The notes under the pieces were generated by a model. That model saw only the letters and a list, made by a program, of their open reading frames with translations. It did not search any database and was not told where the DNA came from. Positions 2,660 to 35,398 of a stretch of DNA of 64,000 bases are shown here, piece after piece. The stretch comes from Escherichia coli (GTDB lineage: Bacteria > Pseudomonadota > Gammaproteobacteria > Enterobacterales > Enterobacteriaceae): the NCBI RefSeq assembly GCF_050920415.1, contig NZ_CP169309.1; one strand, given 5' to 3'. The number at the start of each line of letters is the position of its first letter. The first letter of the stretch is position 1. A program made the translations under genes and the position numbers.

Positions 2660-3745
2660 ATGAAGACGTTTCCTTTGCAAAGCCTGACGCTTATTGAAGC
2701 GCAGCAAAAGCAGTTTGCGTTGGTGGATACGATTTGCCGTCATTTTCCCGGCAGCGAGTTTCTTACACGCGGGGATTTAGGCTTAACGCCAGGGCTGAAT
2801 CAACCGCGTATTACTCAGCGTGTGGAGCAGGTGCTGGCTGATGCGTTTCATGCGCCAGCGGCGGCGCTGGTACAGGGCGCAGGTACTGGAGCGATTCGTG
2901 CGGCGCTGGCAGCTTTGCTCAAACCGGGGCAGCGTCTTCTGGTGCATGACGCGCCGGTTTACCCGACGACTCAGGTCATTATTGCGCAGATGGGGCTGAC
3001 GCTTATCACTGCTGATTTTAATGACCTGTCGGCACTGAAGCAGGTCGTCGACGAGCAACAACCAGATGCCGCGCTGGTGCAGCATACGCGCCAACAGCCG
3101 CAGGACAGCTATGTGCTGGCAGATGTGCTGGCAACATTGCGTTCGGCTGGCGTTCCTGCGTTAACCGATGACAATTATGCGGTGATGAAGGTGGCTCGAA
3201 TTGGCTGCGAATGCGGCGCGAATGTTTCGACATTCTCCTGTTTCAAGCTGTTTGGACCAGAGGGTGTTGGCGCAGTGGTAGGTGATGCCGATGTTATTAA
3301 CCGGATCCGCGCCACGCTCTATTCCGGCGGCAGTCAGATCCAGGGCGCACAGGCGCTGGAAGTATTGCGTGGTCTGGTGTTTGCGCCAGTCATGCACGCG
3401 GTGCAGGCGGGGGTATCTGAACGGTTGCTGGATTTACTTAACGGTGGCGCGGTGGCGGAAGTTAAAAGCGCCGTTATTGCCAATGCGCAGTCGAAGGTGT
3501 TGATTGTGGAGTTTCATCAACCGATTGCCGCCAGAGTGCTTGAAGAGGCGCAAAAGCGCGGCGCGTTGCCTTACCCGGTCGGCGCAGAGTCAAAATATGA
3601 AATCCCGCCGCTCTTTTATCGACTTTCCGGAACGTTTCGTCAGGCGAATCCGCAATTAGAACATTGTGCAATTCGCATTAACCCGAATCGCAGCGGTGAT
3701 GAGACGGTATTGCGGATTTTGCGCGAGAGTATTGCCAGCGTTTAA
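2660..3745 (+). CDS. yhfS: putative PLP-dependent aminotransferase-like protein YhfS
   Basis: 361-aa ORF, last gene of php-yhfUTS cluster. Confidence 0.85.
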   Translation: MKTFPLQSLTLIEAQQKQFALVDTICRHFPGSEFLTRGDLGLTPGLNQPRITQRVEQVLADAFHAPAAALVQGAGTGAIRAALAALLKPGQRLLVHDAPVYPTTQVIIAQMGLTLITADFNDLSALKQVVDEQQPDAALVQHTRQQPQDSYVLADVLATLRSAGVPALTDDNYAVMKVARIGCECGANVSTFSCFKLFGPEGVGAVVGDADVINRIRATLYSGGSQIQGAQALEVLRGLVFAPVMHAVQAGVSERLLDLLNGGAVAEVKSAVIANAQSKVLIVEFHQPIAARVLEEAQKRGALPYPVGAESKYEIPPLFYRLSGTFRQANPQLEHCAIRINPNRSGDETVLRILRESIASV

Positions 3746-3783
3746 TTCTGGGAACGATGTTTTCGCAGAGGATGGAGAAAAAT

Positions 3784-3809
3784 ACGCCCTCGGAAAATTC
3801 AGAGGGCGT
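3784..3809. terminator. hairpin between convergent yhfS and yhfL (T-run on minus strand: yhfL terminator)
   Basis: acgccctc-N10-gagggcgt inverted repeat; on minus strand followed by ATTTTTCT. Confidence 0.5.
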
Positions 3810-3849
3810 TAGCTCATTAAATCGGTGTTAGCCGATTTCTGTCAGAGAC

Positions 3850-4017
3850 TTACTGTGCAGTAGGACCGCAACCGCCAATGATTTTAGAAATAGAAATTGC
3901 CGGGTGCAGCAGGTAGTCGTAAGAGCAGTTCTTATCACGGTTTTCAATATGACCAGTACATGCAGTTAACGTAGCCAGTACTGCACCTACCAGTGCAACT
4001 TTAATAAATTTGTTCAT
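3850..4017 (-). CDS. yhfL: small lipoprotein YhfL (55 aa)
   Basis: Hand-translated: MNKFIKVALVGAVLATLTACTGHIENRDKNCSYDYLLHPAISISKIIGGCGPTAQ; lipobox LTAC; below track size cutoff. Confidence 0.85.
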   Translation of the reverse strand: MNKFIKVALVGAVLATLTACTGHIENRDKNCSYDYLLHPAISISKIIGGCGPTAQ

Positions 4018-4214
4018 TTACATTCCCTATGTATTATATATTAATTAATATTCATTGATTATATGAATATAAGCGGACTGCTCATAAAGAACGATACAGG
4101 AATATTTAATTGGCGTCAGTGAGTGAATGACTTAATTTTGTAAGTCGCTGTAACGGTGAATATAATCCATTAGCAAATGATATTTATTAAGAGGGTATGC
4201 TTTATTTGCTGAAT

Positions 4215-4256
4215 ATATAAAAAGAGTGATAAAGAGGGCCAGAATTATCTGGCCCG
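4215..4256 (-). terminator. cysG rho-independent terminator
   Basis: gggccag-aattat-ctggccc hairpin followed on minus strand by T-rich tract. Confidence 0.5.
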
Positions 4257-4263
4257 GGTAAAA

Positions 4264-5637
4264 TTAATGGTTAGAGAACCAGTTCAATTTATCGCGCAGG
4301 CCAACGACCCGACCAATAATAATTAATGAGGGACTGTTCATTTGCTGCGCCAGCTCGCCCAGTTGCGTGAGCGTACCGTCAATCACGCGTTGCGTTACCG
4401 CCGTACCGTTTTCGACAATCGCCACCGGCATTTCGCAAGGCATTCCGTGTTCAATCAGTTTTTGCTGAATGGTCGCGGCCTGATTAAGCCCCATATAGAA
4501 CACCAGCGTCTGTTTTTCGGCTGCCAGGTTTTCCCAGTCCAGCTCGCCACCGGTTTTTAAGTGTCCGGTAATTAAGCGTACGCTCTGAGCATAATCGCGA
4601 TGCGTGAGCGGAATGCCCGAATAGGCAGAGCAACCAGACGCTGCGGTAATACCTGGAACCACCGAGAACGGAATGCCTGCATTGCACAGTGTTTCCAGCT
4701 CTTCGCCACCACGGCCAAAAATAAACGGATCGCCGCCTTTCAGCCGCACCACGCGTTTGCCTTTTTGCGCTTCCCGCAGCAGGATCTGGTTAATCTCTTC
4801 CTGCGGTACGCAGTGGTATCCCGCGCGTTTGCCGACGAAAACGCGATCAGCATCGCGGCGTACCAGATTCATAATATCGTCAGAAACCAGACGGTCGTAG
4901 ACCACCACATCTGCCTGCTGAATTTGTTGCAGTCCTTTTAGTGTCAGCAGACCGGCATCGCCCGGACCTGCGCCAACCAGCACCACTTCACCGCGATGAT
5001 CGAGCGGTTCATTGATTAACTGTTCGGTCGTTTCGGTAATGGCTTTCTGATCGTTGTTCGCCAGCGACTGCGCCAGGCGATCATTAACGAACAGTTTTTC
5101 CCAGAAACGGCGACGTTCACCCATCGTGGCGAACTGTCGTTTGACCCGACCGCGTAACTGCCCCGCATATTTTGCTACCTGGCCGAGATGCAGCGGCAGC
5201 AGTGATTCAAGTTTTTCGCGCAACAGTCGCGCCAGAACCGGAGAGGTGCCGCCAGAGGAGACCGCTACCATGAGCGGGGAGCGGTCAATAATCGACGGCA
5301 TAATAAAGCTGGCGGCTTTCGGCGCATCGACCACGTTACAGAAGATACGACGAGATTCGGCGGCTTCGCTGACACGCTGGTTAAGCGCGTCATCATCCGT
5401 CGCCGCAATTGCCAGCCAGCAGGTGTCGAGAAGGCTTTCATCAAATGGCCCTTCGACGAGGGTTAACATGCCTGCATCTGCCCATGCGGTGAACTGTGGA
5501 ATAAACGCTAATGCATTCACCGTTAAGCGAGCACCTGCGTCTAACAGCAACCTTGCTTTGCGTTCCGCGACATCACCACCGCCGACAATCAAACAGTCGC
5601 GGTCGCGTAATTGGCAAAATATAGGCAAATGATCCAC
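4264..5637 (-). CDS. cysG: siroheme synthase (uroporphyrinogen-III methyltransferase / precorrin-2 dehydrogenase / ferrochelatase)
   Basis: 457-aa ORF; N-terminal GGGDVA Rossmann motif, C-terminal methyltransferase domain. Confidence 0.95.
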
Positions 5638-5655
5638 GTAAAAACCCCTTAATAA

Positions 5656-6462
5656 TTAACCGGCAGCCGTTTCAGTTTGATTAAATTTGTCCGCAACCGG
5701 ACGATTAGCTTTCGGCGTAGCATACCAATAACCCAATCCCATGAATACGGCACCCGATAAAGTATTACCCAGCGTCACCCACAGCAGGTTATGACCAATA
5801 CCCGCCAGCGTGTAGGCTTCGCTGTGGTTGCCGAACCATGAGAGCGCGAACAGCGTCATGTTAGCGATGGAGTGCTCGTAACCGGACGCAATAAACGCCA
5901 GCAGACACCACCAGATTGCGATAAATTTCGCCGCGCCTTCAGTACGCAGTGCCATCCAGATTGCCAGACAAACCAGCCAGTTACACAATGCGCCTTTGAA
6001 GAACAGTACCATTGCCGGTGCGGTGGTTTTAGCCAGCGCGACGGAGTGAACAATACTGGTATCTACTGGCAAAAGGCTACCACCGCCCCAGCTATAAAGC
6101 ATGGCAACAAAGACGGAACCGACCAGGTTACCCAGCCAGGTTTGCGGCAGGATTGCCCACATTTGCCCGTGGCTAATGGTGCCCGCTTTCACCCCAAAGG
6201 TGAGGAACATGGTGTGTCCGGTGAACAGTTCAGAACCGGCGATAATGACCAGCGTTAAGGCGATACCAAAGGTCGCGCCCATCACCAGAGGACGTACGGA
6301 CGGATCGAGCAAATTACCGAGCGTGAAAATCAGGATGATCCCCAGCCCCACATACGCGCCCGCCATCGCGGAGCTTACCCAGAAGCCGAGCGGGTTATTT
6401 GCCGACAGGCGTGCAATGCGCGCAGCGTTAGCCGCACACTTATTAATAGTGTCTGTAAACAT
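5656..6462 (-). CDS. nirC: nitrite transporter (FNT family)
   Basis: 268-aa membrane ORF downstream of nirBD. Confidence 0.95.
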   Translation of the reverse strand: MFTDTINKCAANAARIARLSANNPLGFWVSSAMAGAYVGLGIILIFTLGNLLDPSVRPLVMGATFGIALTLVIIAGSELFTGHTMFLTFGVKAGTISHGQMWAILPQTWLGNLVGSVFVAMLYSWGGGSLLPVDTSIVHSVALAKTTAPAMVLFFKGALCNWLVCLAIWMALRTEGAAKFIAIWWCLLAFIASGYEHSIANMTLFALSWFGNHSEAYTLAGIGHNLLWVTLGNTLSGAVFMGLGYWYATPKANRPVADKFNQTETAAG

Positions 6463-6556
6463 TTGATTATCCTTTAAAAAATAAAAACAAAAAATAAAAC
6501 AAAAAGTTTAAAAAATGTCCTGCAATATACTTAAGGTCATTACAGGACAATGCAAA

Positions 6557-6580
6557 AAGGGGAGGCATTGCGCCTCCCGT
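6557..6580 (-). other. nirD-nirC intercistronic hairpin
   Basis: gggaggc-attgc-gcctccc inverted repeat. Confidence 0.4.
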
Positions 6581-6588
6581 TAAAACAA

Positions 6589-6915
6589 TTAACCGCGTAG
6601 CTGTACCACGCCGTCTTTCACTCGTGCCTCGTAATGCTTGACGGAAAACTGTTCATCTTCCATGCATAAACCGTCGCTTAAGCGAAAACGCTGTTTTTTC
6701 AGCGGACTGGCGACCCACAGCTCGCCCTGGTGTTCCGCAATCAGCCCGCGTGACAGCACGCTGGATTCGAAGAACGGATCGATGTTGCTGATCGCAAACA
6801 CCTGGTCGCTGTGATACGGGCGGAAAATCGCTACCTGCTCGTCACCTAACAGCGCGCAGACGCCGGTTTCAGGCAGGATGTCATCAATTTTGCAGATGTC
6901 TTTCCACTGGCTCAT
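6589..6915 (-). CDS. nirD: nitrite reductase small subunit
   Basis: 108-aa ORF overlapping nirB stop. Confidence 0.95.
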   Translation of the reverse strand: MSQWKDICKIDDILPETGVCALLGDEQVAIFRPYHSDQVFAISNIDPFFESSVLSRGLIAEHQGELWVASPLKKQRFRLSDGLCMEDEQFSVKHYEARVKDGVVQLRG

Positions 6916-9455
6916 GCGTTGTCCTCCACCAGAGTTACCGGGATACGTTCATACGGCGTTGCCGGACGGTGCTGTTCGCGCTCTGGCACCATCTGCACGT
7001 TCGGGTCACGCTTGTCGCTGTTGATGAAGTGTTTGAAGCGAATCTGCGCGGACGGTGTATTGACCGTTTCAGTCCACTCACACACTACCGCTTCACGCAG
7101 GCGCGCCATCTCTTCTTCCAGATGTGCGTTCAGCCCCAGCTTGTCGTCAATGATCACCGCTTTCAGGTAATCGATGCCGCCTTCGAGGTTTTCTAACCAC
7201 GGTGCGGTACGCGTCAGTTTGTCGGCAGTACGGATGTAGAACATCATGAAGCGGTCAAGATATTTGATCAGCGTTTCGCGATCGATATCCGCTGCCAGCA
7301 GATCCGCATGACGCGGTTTCATGCCGCCGTTACCGCACACATACAGGTTCCAGCCTTTTTCGGTGGCGATAATACCTACGTCTTTACCCTGAGCTTCTGA
7401 ACATTCACGGGTACAGCCGGAGACACCGAACTTCATTTTGTGCGGCGTACGGATGCCTTTGTAGCGGTTTTCCAGTTCCACGCCGAGGCCGACGCTGTCG
7501 CCAACGCCATAGCGGCACCAGGTGCTACCCACGCAGGTTTTCGCCATACGCAGTGCTTTCGCATAGGCATGACCGGTTTCGAAACCTGCTTCAATCAGCT
7601 GACGCCAGATCTCCGGCAGATCGTCTTTCTGTGCGCCAAACATCGCCAGACGCTGGGAGCCGGTGATTTTGGTGTAGAGATTAAATTCACGCGCGATACG
7701 ACCCACTGCCATCAGCCCTTCTGGGGTGATTTCACCACCCGGAGAACGCGGGATCACCGAGTAGGTGCCGTCTTTCTGGATGTTAGCGAGGAAGTTGTCG
7801 TTAGAATCCTGCAGCGGAGTATGTTCCGGCTTCAGAATGTATTCGTTCCAGCAGGAGGCCAGCAGCGAACCGACGGTCGGTTTACAAACCTCACAACCGT
7901 AGCCTTTACCGTGTTTCGCCAGCAGTTCTTCGAAGGTTTTAATGCCTTCAACGCGGATCAAATGGAACAGTTCCTGACGCGAATAAGCAAAGTGTTCGCA
8001 CAGGTTATTGTTAACTTCGATACCCTGTTTTGCCAGTTCCGCGTTCAGTACCTGAGTGACCAGCGGGATACAGCCACCGCAGCCAGTACCCGCTTTGGTT
8101 TCGGCTTTCAGCGCCGCAACGGTGTGGCAGCCTTTGTTGATGGCAGCAATCAGATCGCCTTTGGTGACGTCGAAGCAGGAGCAGATTTGCGCGCTGTCCG
8201 GCAGTTTATCAACACCAATAGACGGCTTGCCGCTACCTGAGTGCGCCGGCAGGATCAGGGAATCCGGGTTTTCCGGCAGTTCGATTGCGTTCAGCACCAG
8301 TTGCAGCAGGTTACCGTAGTCGCTGGTATCACCCACCAGTACTGCACCGAGCAGGGTTTTGTTGTCTTCGCTGACAATCAGGCGTTTGTAGATCTCTTTA
8401 CTTTCGTCGAGGTAAACGTAGCTACGTGCGCCAGGCGTGCGACCGTGAGCATCGCCAATACCGCCTACGTCTACGCCAAGCAGTTTCAGCTTGGCGCTAA
8501 GGTCAGCACCTTCAAAGGCGTTTTCGCTACCGAGAATATGGTCAACGGCGACCTGCGCCATTTTGTAGCCAGGTGCTACCAGACCAAATACACGGTTGTT
8601 CCAGCTTGCGCATTCACCGATGGCGTAGATATCTGGATCGGAAGTCTGGCAGGAATCATTAATGACGATACCCCCACGAGGAGCAACGTCCAGACCACAC
8701 TGGGTTGCCAGCTTATCGCGCGGACGGATACCGGTAGAGAAGACGATAAAGTCGACTTCCAGTTCGCTGCCGTCGGCAAAACGCATGGTTTTACGCGCTT
8801 CGACACCTTCCTGCACAATCTCAAGAGTGTTTTTGCTGGTGTGAACGCGTACACCCATGCTTTCGATTTTGCGACGCAATTGCTCGCCGCCCATCTGATC
8901 AAGCTGTTCCGCCATCAGCATAGGGGCAAATTCGATAACGTGGGTTTCAATGCCTAAGTTTTTCAGCGCGCCAGCGGCTTCCAGACCTAACAGGCCGCCG
9001 CCAACAACGGCACCGCGCTTACTGCGACGGGCGCAGGATTCAATGGCGTTGAGGTCTTCAATGGTGCGATAGACAAAGCAGTCCTGAGTATCAGAACCTT
9101 TGATTGGCGGGATCCACGGATAGGAACCGGTCGCCATGATCAGCTTGTCATAAAAAACGGTACGTCCGGCGCTGGAGTGAATCACCTTCTCCTGACGGTT
9201 GATGGTGATAGCGCGTTCGCCGACCAGAACTTTAATACCGTGTTTTTCGTAAAAGCCTTCGCGCACCAGCGACAGCTCTTCGGCGGTGTGGTGAGAGAAG
9301 TAAGACGAGAGGTGTACGCGGTCATAAGCGATGCGCGGTTCTTCACAGAAAACGGTAATATCAAAGTTGGCCGCATCAGATTTATCAAGAAGATCTTCGA
9401 TAAAGCGATGGCCGACCATACCGTTACCGATAATTGCGAGTCTGACTTTGCTCAT
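6912..9455 (-). CDS. nirB: NADH-dependent nitrite reductase large subunit
   Basis: 847-aa ORF; N-terminal FAD/NAD Rossmann (IIGNGMVG), Cys clusters for siroheme/Fe-S. Confidence 0.97.
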   Translation of the reverse strand: MSKVRLAIIGNGMVGHRFIEDLLDKSDAANFDITVFCEEPRIAYDRVHLSSYFSHHTAEELSLVREGFYEKHGIKVLVGERAITINRQEKVIHSSAGRTVFYDKLIMATGSYPWIPPIKGSDTQDCFVYRTIEDLNAIESCARRSKRGAVVGGGLLGLEAAGALKNLGIETHVIEFAPMLMAEQLDQMGGEQLRRKIESMGVRVHTSKNTLEIVQEGVEARKTMRFADGSELEVDFIVFSTGIRPRDKLATQCGLDVAPRGGIVINDSCQTSDPDIYAIGECASWNNRVFGLVAPGYKMAQVAVDHILGSENAFEGADLSAKLKLLGVDVGGIGDAHGRTPGARSYVYLDESKEIYKRLIVSEDNKTLLGAVLVGDTSDYGNLLQLVLNAIELPENPDSLILPAHSGSGKPSIGVDKLPDSAQICSCFDVTKGDLIAAINKGCHTVAALKAETKAGTGCGGCIPLVTQVLNAELAKQGIEVNNNLCEHFAYSRQELFHLIRVEGIKTFEELLAKHGKGYGCEVCKPTVGSLLASCWNEYILKPEHTPLQDSNDNFLANIQKDGTYSVIPRSPGGEITPEGLMAVGRIAREFNLYTKITGSQRLAMFGAQKDDLPEIWRQLIEAGFETGHAYAKALRMAKTCVGSTWCRYGVGDSVGLGVELENRYKGIRTPHKMKFGVSGCTRECSEAQGKDVGIIATEKGWNLYVCGNGGMKPRHADLLAADIDRETLIKYLDRFMMFYIRTADKLTRTAPWLENLEGGIDYLKAVIIDDKLGLNAHLEEEMARLREAVVCEWTETVNTPSAQIRFKHFINSDKRDPNVQMVPEREQHRPATPYERIPVTLVEDNA

Positions 9456-9513
9456 TTTTGCCTCGATTTCTTTTCTATTACCGCCTACCTTAACGATTCA
9501 GCAACCCCGCTTA

Positions 9514-9527
9514 TTGATGTAAATCAA
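9514..9527 (-). promoter_or_regulatory. FNR binding site of nirB promoter (TTGAT-N4-ATCAA)
   Basis: ttgatgtaaatcaa about 60 bp upstream of nirB ATG. Confidence 0.65.
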
Positions 9528-9540
9528 ATTCACCTTTATA

Positions 9541-9556
9541 TACTCCTTAAGAGGTA
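9541..9556 (-). promoter_or_regulatory. NarL/NarP 7-2-7 heptamer pair of nirB promoter
   Basis: tactcct-ta-agaggta inverted heptamers (TACYYMT type). Confidence 0.5.
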
Positions 9557-9716
9557 TATTGCTGATTTGTATAAATTTTCTTAAGTCACGGAATTGTCTG
9601 ACATTTCATTCGTGTGCAAAAAATAGACAAAATGAAAGGGTTTATAGAAATAGACGTACGTAGCGGGGTAAGTGAGGAAAAGGCCGGACGACGATAGCGC
9701 CGCCCGGCATGAGCAA

Positions 9717-10898
9717 TTAATGAGAGGTCAGGGTGTTATGCTGACGGTGACGGCTGACGAAACCTAACAGGAAGCACATCACAAAGACGACAGCGTACAG
9801 ACCGTTTGCCGTCAGCAGCGCCGCCTTTGGACCGCTATGTTCAACAATCGGGCCGGTAACGACAAAGGTCAGCATGGTACCGATGGTCCCGCAGGTCAGG
9901 ACAAAGTTAACCAGTTTTGGTGACGGTACTTTGGTTTGCTGTGAACCCAGGGTGATGATGGTGGTATAGATCGCGCTGGAGAAGAAGCCCAGGGCGAGAA
10001 TTGACCACGCCATATGTGCCGGTGTTCCGGTGTTAAAGACGTACATTAGAATCGCAGCCAGACCGGCCAGTACGGTCAGAATACGTTGCAAATCAAAGAA
10101 GCGAAGAATAAAGCTGAACGCCCACATGCCGACCATATAGGACATCCAGAAGTTACTCACCAGCGTACCTGCGTCGTTCAGGCTCATGCCCAGGCCTTTG
10201 GCATACTCTGGTACCCAGGAGATAAAACCTAACTGACCGAGGATGTAGCACAGCGCCGCAACAGAGAGAAACAGCACGCCGATCCCCCATTTTTCTTTCG
10301 CTACCGGAGCATCCGTTTTTGGTGCATGTTTGCCCAGTGCCGGAAACTCACAGCCGAAGGTCAGAATAAAAATAGCGACGTAAACCAGCCCGATGCAGGC
10401 ATAAACCCAGTACCACTCAATGCTGCGCGCCAGCAGAAACGCGGCGATCATTGGGAAAATCATCCCTGCCATACTGAAGAAGGAGTCGGTAAATAACAGG
10501 CGAGAACCGCGCTGACGCCCTTCATACATTTGTGTTATCAGGAATGTACCAATCGACATAGTGATACCGCTGACCACCCCGAGAATGAACATCGCTGCCG
10601 AGAAAAGCGCCAGGCTGTGGCTAAACATCAAACCAGCAACCGCTAGCACCATCAGGAGAAAGCCAAAACGTAACTGCGTTTTTAACGGGACGATTTCCAT
10701 CAGCCAGGCATTGAGGAAGATAGAGATTAAAATGCCAGCATTGAGGAAGGTGAAGGTGTTACTCATACTGGAAACAGGCAGATTGAAATAATCGGCGATA
10801 TTTCCCATCACCATCCCGGTGACAATAACCAACGCACCCGTCAGTGCGTAGGAGAGAAAGCTAATCCATGTGAGCTTGATGCGATTGCTGTTAGTCAT
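9717..10898 (-). CDS. tsgA: MFS transporter TsgA
   Basis: 393-aa 12-TM-like ORF between nirB and ppiA. Confidence 0.9.
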
Positions 10899-33318: not shown

Positions 33319-33342
33319 TTACACGTTAATTAGTTTCGAATT

Positions 33343-33368
33343 AAAAAGGGCGCTTCGGCGCCCTTTTT
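33343..33368 (+). terminator. tufA rho-independent terminator
   Basis: gggcgc-ttcg-gcgccc followed by T5. Confidence 0.7.
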
Positions 33369-33443
33369 GCTGCCCGTAATTTGAGCTCGAAATATTTAGT
33401 CGTAATTTCACTCGCTGAACTATGGCGCAAATTAAACTGTGCT

Positions 33444-33466
33444 ATTGTAATCATAACCATTCTCAT
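33444..33466 (+). promoter_or_regulatory. candidate Fur box upstream of bfd-bfr
   Basis: ttgtaatcataaccattctcatt: AT-rich hexamer repeats resembling GATAAT-type Fur sites. Confidence 0.35.
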
Positions 33467-33500
33467 TTACACTTTGCGCAGAATTTGAACGGGAGCAATC

Positions 33501-33767: not shown

Positions 33768-34244
33768 ATGAAAGGTGATGTTAAAATCATAAATTATCTC
33801 AATAAACTATTGGGAAATGAGCTTGTCGCAATCAATCAGTATTTTCTCCATGCCCGGATGTTTAAAAACTGGGGCCTGATGCGTCTCAATGACGTCGAAT
33901 ACCATGAATCTATTGATGAGATGAAACACGCTGATAAATATATCGAGCGTATTTTGTTTTTAGAAGGAATCCCTAACTTACAGGATTTAGGCAAACTGGG
34001 GATTGGTGAAGATGTCGAGGAGATGCTGCAATCCGACCTGCGATTAGAACTGGAAGGCGCGAAGGATCTCCGTGAGGCTATCGCGTATGCCGACAGCGTT
34101 CATGACTATGTTAGCCGTGATATGATGATCGAGATCCTTGCCGATGAAGAAGGTCATATTGACTGGCTCGAAACTGAGCTGGATCTCATCGGTAAAATCG
34201 GTTTACAAAATTACCTGCAATCACAAATAAAAGTTAAAGATTAA
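33768..34244 (+). CDS. bfr: bacterioferritin
   Basis: 158-aa ferritin-like ORF. Confidence 0.97.
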
Positions 34245-34708
34245 CGGCCTGCCAGCAAACTATCCCAGCCTACAACGAAACCCGCAGCCGCCAGAAATGG
34301 CCCAAACGGCAGCGGGTTTTTTAATGACTCTTTTCCTCTCATGAGCAGACCAATAACTACGGCTCCGCAAGCGAATGAGGCAGCAAGGAAAACCAGTCGT
34401 GGCAAGAAGGTCCATGTATGCCAGGCACCAAGGGCGGCGAGAAACTTCACATCACCATAGCCTAATCCTTCTTTATGACGCAGTATGCGATACCCCCAGT
34501 AAATGACAGCGAATGTGCCGTAACCAATAATCGCCCCCCATAACGCATCGGCTAAACCGTCAGGATTACAAATCTGATAGAACAAAAGACCTGACCAGAG
34601 TAACGGGCACGTAAATCTGTCAGGTAACAAGCCATGATTTGCATCCCAGAAAAAAAGTAGGGCTGATAAACAAGCGTACAAAATCAGAAAGGGAAGGGTA
34701 GTGTCCAT
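34241..34708 (-). CDS. hopD: N-terminally short type IV prepilin (leader) peptidase homologue
   Basis: 155-aa membrane ORF with prepilin-peptidase motifs (HGLLPD...PLLW; [19 protein letters not shown]); stop overlaps bfr stop by 4 nt. Confidence 0.75.
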
Positions 34709-34881
34709 AAAACATCCTCTGTAATTGGAGTATCACCATCGAATAACTGCGGATGCTCAGCAACAGAGAAATCGCTGATTTGTTAACCTGATTCCGGTGA
34801 AAAACGCTATCTTCACAACCTTACAAATTTCGTGGAATGCAGCTCGCAATCTGCGCGTTGCGATTAATTTCTACCCGATGC

Positions 34882-34909
34882 TTGCGTCAGGCTCAGATTT
34901 GCGTATAAT
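34882..34909 (+). promoter_or_regulatory. S10 operon promoter
   Basis: TTGCGT (34882-34887), 16-bp spacer, TATAAT (34904-34909). Confidence 0.6.
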
Positions 34910-34916
34910 GCGCGGG

Positions 34917-35398
<482 letters not shown>

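Follow-up and report, generated by a model that had tools for sequence, protein, structure and literature searches.

The junction between yhfS and yhfL in the 64,000-nt stretch of E. coli DNA analysed here (64 kb; hereafter the window) has very probably never been occupied by frlABCDR, the operon that stands at this position in K-12. We put the probability of the whole explanation at about 0.88: the frl-less (empty) junction would be ancestral, frl would be an old insertion in some other Escherichia, the two alleles would have been exchanged by homologous recombination, and no Frl use is predicted for this strain. On this reading, yhfL and the yhfS cluster would have converged from the outset on the yhfL 3′ hairpins, a rho-independent terminator and some 20–29 nt of further spacer. 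An old, probably single, event would then have put a segment of ~5.24 kb in place of those 20–29 nt in some Escherichia, producing the K-12 arrangement. Both alleles would have persisted since, being swapped among lineages by homologous recombination in their conserved flanks without a mobile element.

Anatomy of the yhfS–yhfL junction

In the ORF listing of the window, yhfS (plus strand) and yhfL (minus strand) are convergent. Their stop codons (yhfS TAA, 3743–3745, plus strand; yhfL, 3850–3852, minus strand) enclose a spacer of 104 nt at 3746–3849, in agreement with the convergence across about 100 bp, between stops at 3745 and 3850, that the initial annotation had described. The names yhfS and yhfL at these positions follow the RefSeq annotation of a near-identical genome, E. 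coli MFDS1022581. The features of the locus are as follows.

2660–3745, plus strand: yhfS, an ORF of 361 aa encoding a PLP-dependent aminotransferase-fold protein (RefSeq annotation of MFDS1022581)
3746–3849, no strand: convergent intergenic spacer of 104 nt, the frl-less allele of presumed ancestral type, aligned with other frl-less spacers
3752–3771, no strand: empty-allele-specific segment, 20 nt by blastn and up to ~29 nt by alignment
3774–3809, minus strand: putative yhfL intrinsic terminator, stem ACGCCCUC/GAGGGCGU at 3784–3809, then AUUUUUCUCC from 3783 down to 3774
3819–3838, minus strand: second hairpin, AAAUCGG/CCGAUUU, just downstream of the yhfL stop, from fold and conservation
3850–4017, minus strand: yhfL, an ORF of 55 aa encoding a DUF4223 lipoprotein
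4264–5637, minus strand: cysG, the conserved left-hand neighbour (nirBDC-cysG-yhfL), which anchors synteny with K-12

The yhfZ-to-yhfS (php) cluster ends with yhfS, upstream of which lie yhfT, yhfU, php and yhfW; at the DNA level yhfS is 91% (91.1%) identical to its K-12 counterpart. On the minus strand beyond yhfL are found cysG, nirC, nirD and nirB. The YhfL protein (WP_001031834.1) was identical in every E. coli record examined. Among Escherichia lineages the yhfL–cysG intergenic region (4018–4263, 246 bp) is only partly alignable, at 77–87% identity, compared with 91–100% for yhfL. A 48-aa ORF at 3666–3812 on the plus strand overlaps both the end of yhfS and the spacer, and the spacer carries small indels between lineages.

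On either strand the spacer folds more stably than its shuffled versions (z = −3.2 and −3.6), and the hairpin that had been noted in it from the letters alone is one of two, at 3784–3809 and 3819–3838. The first has an 8-bp G+C-rich stem which is followed in the yhfL sense by the U-rich tract AUUUUUCUCC, such that on the minus strand a G+C-rich stem-loop stands directly before a U-rich tract, the sequence pattern of an intrinsic terminator. On the plus strand, in the yhfS sense, no U-tract follows the hairpin, which thus falls short of a textbook bidirectional terminator. All nine Escherichia sequences compared, covering both alleles, have the same 8-bp stem, with inner pairs that vary yet stay paired. 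The second hairpin has seven pairs, one of them with a compensatory change on both sides, and is found in frl-positive and frl-less alleles. The hairpin at 3784–3809 thus looks like a rho-independent terminator of yhfL, a putative assignment based on fold and on conservation across Escherichia in place of a consensus terminator scan, whose rule permits loops of up to 8 nt and which did not flag this hairpin. An Rfam scan of 3300–4400 at E-values up to 1 gave no match. Since the hairpins are kept in both alleles, they represent the normal yhfL 3′ end and not a product of the frl difference. In Citrobacter and Enterobacter the yhfL–yhfS spacer has a sequence unrelated to the Escherichia one and carries a symmetric hairpin of A-run, GC-stem and T-run (e.g. 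AAAAAAACCGGGAATTTCCCGGTTTTTT). This looks like a textbook bidirectional terminator, whereas the Escherichia hairpin has its T-tract on the yhfL side only.

Comparison with the K-12 frl locus

Between the yhfL and yhfS stop codons, K-12 MG1655 has 5,319 bp carrying frlA, frlB, frlC, frlD and frlR. Their roles in K-12 are those of a transporter (FrlA), a deglycase (FrlB), a 3-epimerase (FrlC), the fructoselysine 6-kinase (FrlD) and a repressor (FrlR) (Wiame et al. 2002, J Biol Chem 277:42523, as cited in PMC3505186). A blastn comparison of the K-12 interval with the window returned a single match, namely the first 78 nt of the interval, downstream of yhfL, to window 3849–3772 at 87% identity. 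On the yhfS side, blastn homology to K-12 extends up to window 3751. Window positions 3752–3771 have no K-12 counterpart, and K-12 holds in their place ~5,235 bp (~5.24 kb) made up of the frlA promoter region, frlA–D, frlR, a REP element and a second palindromic repeat. The two loci hence share their flanking genes and the yhfL terminator region and differ by ~5.24 kb replacing 20–29 nt.

When the five Frl proteins were searched against the 64-kb window by tblastn there was no significant match, the best E-values (0.04 and 0.27) falling in unrelated genes. The frl DNA likewise found nothing in the window by blastn beyond the 78-nt yhfL terminator region. The proposal that an operon of about 5 kb sits between yhfL and yhfS in K-12 and is absent here was therefore correct. 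Moreover, the spacer shows no sign of excision of a mobile island or of a deletion scar: we found no integrase or transposase remnant, direct repeats, tRNA or att site, or IS ends.

We also considered whether the K-12 sequence after the terminator could be read as a diverged empty segment accompanied by a duplicated 'TTAAAT' target site, an idea which would have put the frl insertion exactly at the yhfS stop codon. The alignments were no better than those of shuffles, with 63–464 of 500 shuffles reaching the alignment score, and the idea was rejected.

Distribution of the two alleles and integrity of the locus

A 1-kb query across the junction was contiguous, and the junction thus empty, in 2,105 of 5,426 complete E. 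coli genomes, and was split in most of the others. The K-12 frl operon was found in 3,300 of the same 5,426, always on the chromosome, and on none of the plasmids in this collection. The two counts add up to 5,405, no more than the 5,420 genomes in which the locus is present; this fits mutually exclusive alleles. These frequencies support the original description of a strain-level presence/absence difference. The pan-genome comparison of the junction that had been suggested along with it places the empty allele in B2-like and K-12-like backgrounds among others.

An assembly error that collapsed the locus, or a relocation of frl to another part of the genome, would mimic such an absence. The window is 99.97% identical to MFDS1022581 over 64 kb (10 mismatches and 8 gaps, mostly homopolymer lengths) and two independent complete genomes have the identical junction. 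A homologous junction stands in 2,105 independent complete genomes, so that a collapsed locus is ruled out, and the allele counts given above stay within the locus count. For relocation we used a chimeric query comprising 2.6 kb of window DNA (fic to argD) and 1.6 kb of K-12 frlB–frlC. MFDS1022581 came out top for this query, matching at a single place, and strain N96, whose junction is identical to that of the window, also gave one place; frl-positive genomes give two. No frlB–frlC was detected elsewhere on the MFDS1022581 or N96 chromosomes by megablast, i.e. at ~85% identity or more, and, as stated, no plasmid in the collection carries frl. Absence from the whole genome is thus judged on frlB–frlC by megablast, in a 99.97%-identical genome standing in for the source genome. 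In the light of these checks, we regard artefact or relocation, the two refutations that the initial annotation had named, as scarcely credible.

Differences between the window and MFDS1022581 include those at window 48761, 2115 and 16344. One of them, in the terminator hairpin that follows rplQ, is an extra A within the A-run, AAAAAAACCCGCCCCGGCGGGTTTTTTT. Homopolymer sequencing differences or changes of very recent date are the probable source.

Outgroups and the probable direction of change

We scanned for YhfL in one genome per species, obtaining at least 39 loci, and then searched these by tblastn with the Frl, YhfS/T, Php, CysG and Nir proteins; the loci listed include neither E. fergusonii nor several of the cryptic clades. 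yhfL is followed directly by a convergent yhfS, without frl, in E. albertii NBRC 107761, Escherichia SCPM-O-B-8794, Citrobacter werkmanii, Citrobacter sp. FP75, Enterobacter sp. ENT03, Buttiauxella agrestis and Superficieibacter electus. Among the matches listed, none of 37 loci that are not labelled E. coli has an Frl protein match near yhfL, and frl lies near yhfL in only two E. coli-labelled loci, K-12 and E69. SCPM-O-B-8794 is a divergent 'E. coli' with 93–96% identity to K-12 in nirC, cysG and yhfT.

The spacers of E. albertii and SCPM-O-B-8794 align end to end with that of the window, including the 20–29 nt that are missing from frl-positive alleles, and homologous copies of this empty-specific segment, with SNPs, are present in KSC207, CFT073, E. 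albertii and SCPM-O-B-8794. The E. albertii and SCPM-O-B-8794 junctions have the same convergent frl-less order and a conserved terminator stem, and differ from the window in 85–92% identity of the flanking genes and in small spacer indels. Because these outgroups lack frl and their spacers are homologous throughout, parsimony over this limited sample leads us to infer that the empty junction is the ancestral state and the K-12 arrangement a derived insertion, frl having replaced 20–29 nt. The earlier statement that the spacer holds no frl remnants and no mobile-element scars stands, every spacer base being homologous to spacers of E. albertii or other Escherichia, and the explanation would be that nothing was cut out. 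'Absent' is consequently not to be read as 'deleted', which is a refinement of the initial annotation.

The obvious competing account is a fresh deletion, in which an frl-positive ancestor spontaneously lost the 5.2-kb operon and the 104-nt spacer is the joint. The usual reference, K-12, has the operon, frl-positive is the majority allele (the 3,300 genomes above), and the divergent Escherichia E69 is frl-positive too. However, a deletion cannot recreate a 20–29-nt segment which frl-positive alleles lack and which is nonetheless homologous to the E. albertii and SCPM-O-B-8794 spacers. Nor is any frl, REP or other island sequence left in the window, and junctions of this architecture are found on three or more diverged flank haplotypes (window-like, K-12-like and B2-like). 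We therefore consider a deletion very unlikely. What the polarity adds to the presence/absence pattern is a direction: K-12 would have the insertion and frl-less strains would keep the original junction. The 'loss of frl in B2' would then be better termed non-acquisition, or retention of the ancestral allele.

Probable age of the insertion and proposed exchange of alleles

The left frl junction, directly after the terminator T-tract, is common to K-12, O157:H7 and E69, and the right junction, with the REP element and the second palindromic repeat just before the yhfS stop, is common to K-12 and E69. These shared junctions point to a single origin, and the insertion probably arose once. E69 is labelled E. 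coli (CP089930.1; extracted locus 3757–10331) and has frlABCDR at this very site, bounded by those junctions. Its frl genes are 91–96% identical to those of K-12 and its flanks 90–97%. Given that E69 is a divergent Escherichia whose frl genes are as diverged as its flanks, the insertion would be old; it is older than E. coli proper or has crossed its boundary. The frl segment has a G+C content of 53.8%, compared with 54.8–55.1% for the flanks. No mobile element was identified at it, there being no integrase, IS or tRNA, and a possible target-site duplication was not significant.

In O157:H7 strain NE 1169-1 (extracted locus 3959–6275) frl is present and the whole yhfS-to-yhfZ (php) cluster is missing, such that frlR is followed directly by trpS; frlD is annotated there as a pseudogene with an internal stop. 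With frl present but the php cluster missing, the yhfL–trpS interval holds two independently variable modules.

The empty allele is found on at least three diverged flank types, namely window-like (rare), K-12-like (e.g. KSC207 and S1-KEN-03-A) and B2-like (CFT073, NU14 and ST131), with a separate SNP variant of the empty-allele-specific segment on each. When the ranking was sampled at even intervals, ~14 of 23 empty junctions proved B2-like. KSC207, which is empty, and K-12, which is frl-positive, are identical over the 574 bp left and the 550 bp right of the junction; further out they differ by 1.0–1.2%, a density that predicts ~6–7 differences for each inner flank. The allele pair coexists on identical inner-flank haplotypes within phylogroup A. 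This block of identity suggests short-tract recombinational swapping of alleles in phylogroup A-like backgrounds, in a manner that fits either strain as the recipient.

If the insertion predates E. coli proper, as its presence in E69 suggests it may, the window lineage could once have had frl and then regained the empty allele by recombination, a history that would look the same as simple retention. This gives an alternative to continuous vacancy: an frl-positive ancestor would have taken in an ancestral-type empty allele by homologous recombination across yhfL/cysG and yhfS. The KSC207/K-12 pair, with identical inner flanks around different alleles, shows that such swaps happen, and frl has been listed among clusters convergently gained by some B1 EHEC strains (Didelot et al. 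2012, PMC3505186). Against this, the close and more distant relatives of the window lineage in the collection (matches at 96–100% identity) are all empty. The window flanks are not conspicuously foreign either, with K-12 identities of 94.9% for cysG, 95.7% for nirC, 94.8% for yhfT and the 91.1% given above for yhfS, and nothing points specifically to import at this locus. We hold such a replacement to be unlikely and prefer a junction that has stayed empty throughout.

A broader proposition concerns Escherichia lineages as a whole. The two alleles may form a very old presence/absence polymorphism across Escherichia in which frl arose once and the alleles have been repeatedly swapped by short-tract recombination, perhaps under diet-dependent balancing selection for the use of Amadori products. 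We offer this tentatively, as somewhat short of an even chance.

Phylogroup B2 and predicted metabolic consequences

The difference in frl content is itself already known. Phylogroup B2 is without the frl transporter and operon (Fang et al. 2018, PMC5996543), and in the metabolic models of that study growth on fructoselysine or psicoselysine was predicted for 0–3% of B2 strains compared with 69–91% of other strains. A 2025 preprint (bioRxiv 10.1101/2025.09.14.675865) terms the absence of frl a hallmark of B2. The frl-negative junction of B2 (e.g. CFT073, NU14 and ST131) has the same order as the window, i.e. yhfS, a spacer of ~105 nt, yhfL on the opposite strand and cysG. Both have the two yhfL hairpins and the empty-allele-specific segment. 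They differ in their flanks, which are ~90–91% identical over 1 kb, and in SNPs and small indels of the spacer. The window extends the empty allele to a further lineage.

Carrying frl neither at this locus nor, by DNA similarity, elsewhere, the window strain should be unable to use fructoselysine or psicoselysine, both Amadori products of heated food, via the Frl pathway; the prediction draws on gene content and on the PMC5996543 models. Beyond strain typing this has little significance. The trait already separates B2 and ExPEC from other E. coli in metabolic models.

Source lineage and other features of the window

Only 2 of the 5,426 complete genomes are at least 99% identical to the window at the junction locus. 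The identity of the window lineage to K-12 in nirC, cysG and yhfT (94.8–95.7%) is unusually low for an E. coli label. For fic–argD (window 12000–14600), the best match beyond a handful of relatives is 96.6%, to SMS-3-5, IAI39 and CE10. The lineage is rare, apparently deep-branching and distinct from B2, and may be a cryptic one.

Two further segments of K-12 are missing from the window. chiA, which occupies 2.7 kb between tufA and bfd in K-12, is lacking, with only 33319–33500 between the end of tuf (33318) and the start of bfd (33501). Also missing are gspB, gspA and gspC–M, the cryptic genes for type II secretion (~12 kb in K-12, from rpsJ to gspO), the corresponding region being 34241–35086. 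There, a shortened prepilin peptidase gene (34241–34708; 155 aa versus 225 aa for K-12 GspO) is the sole gene between bfr and rpsJ. Lastly, an rRNA operon (16S, tRNA-Ile, tRNA-Ala and the start of 23S) occupies ~58700–64000, according to the annotation of the near-identical genome.
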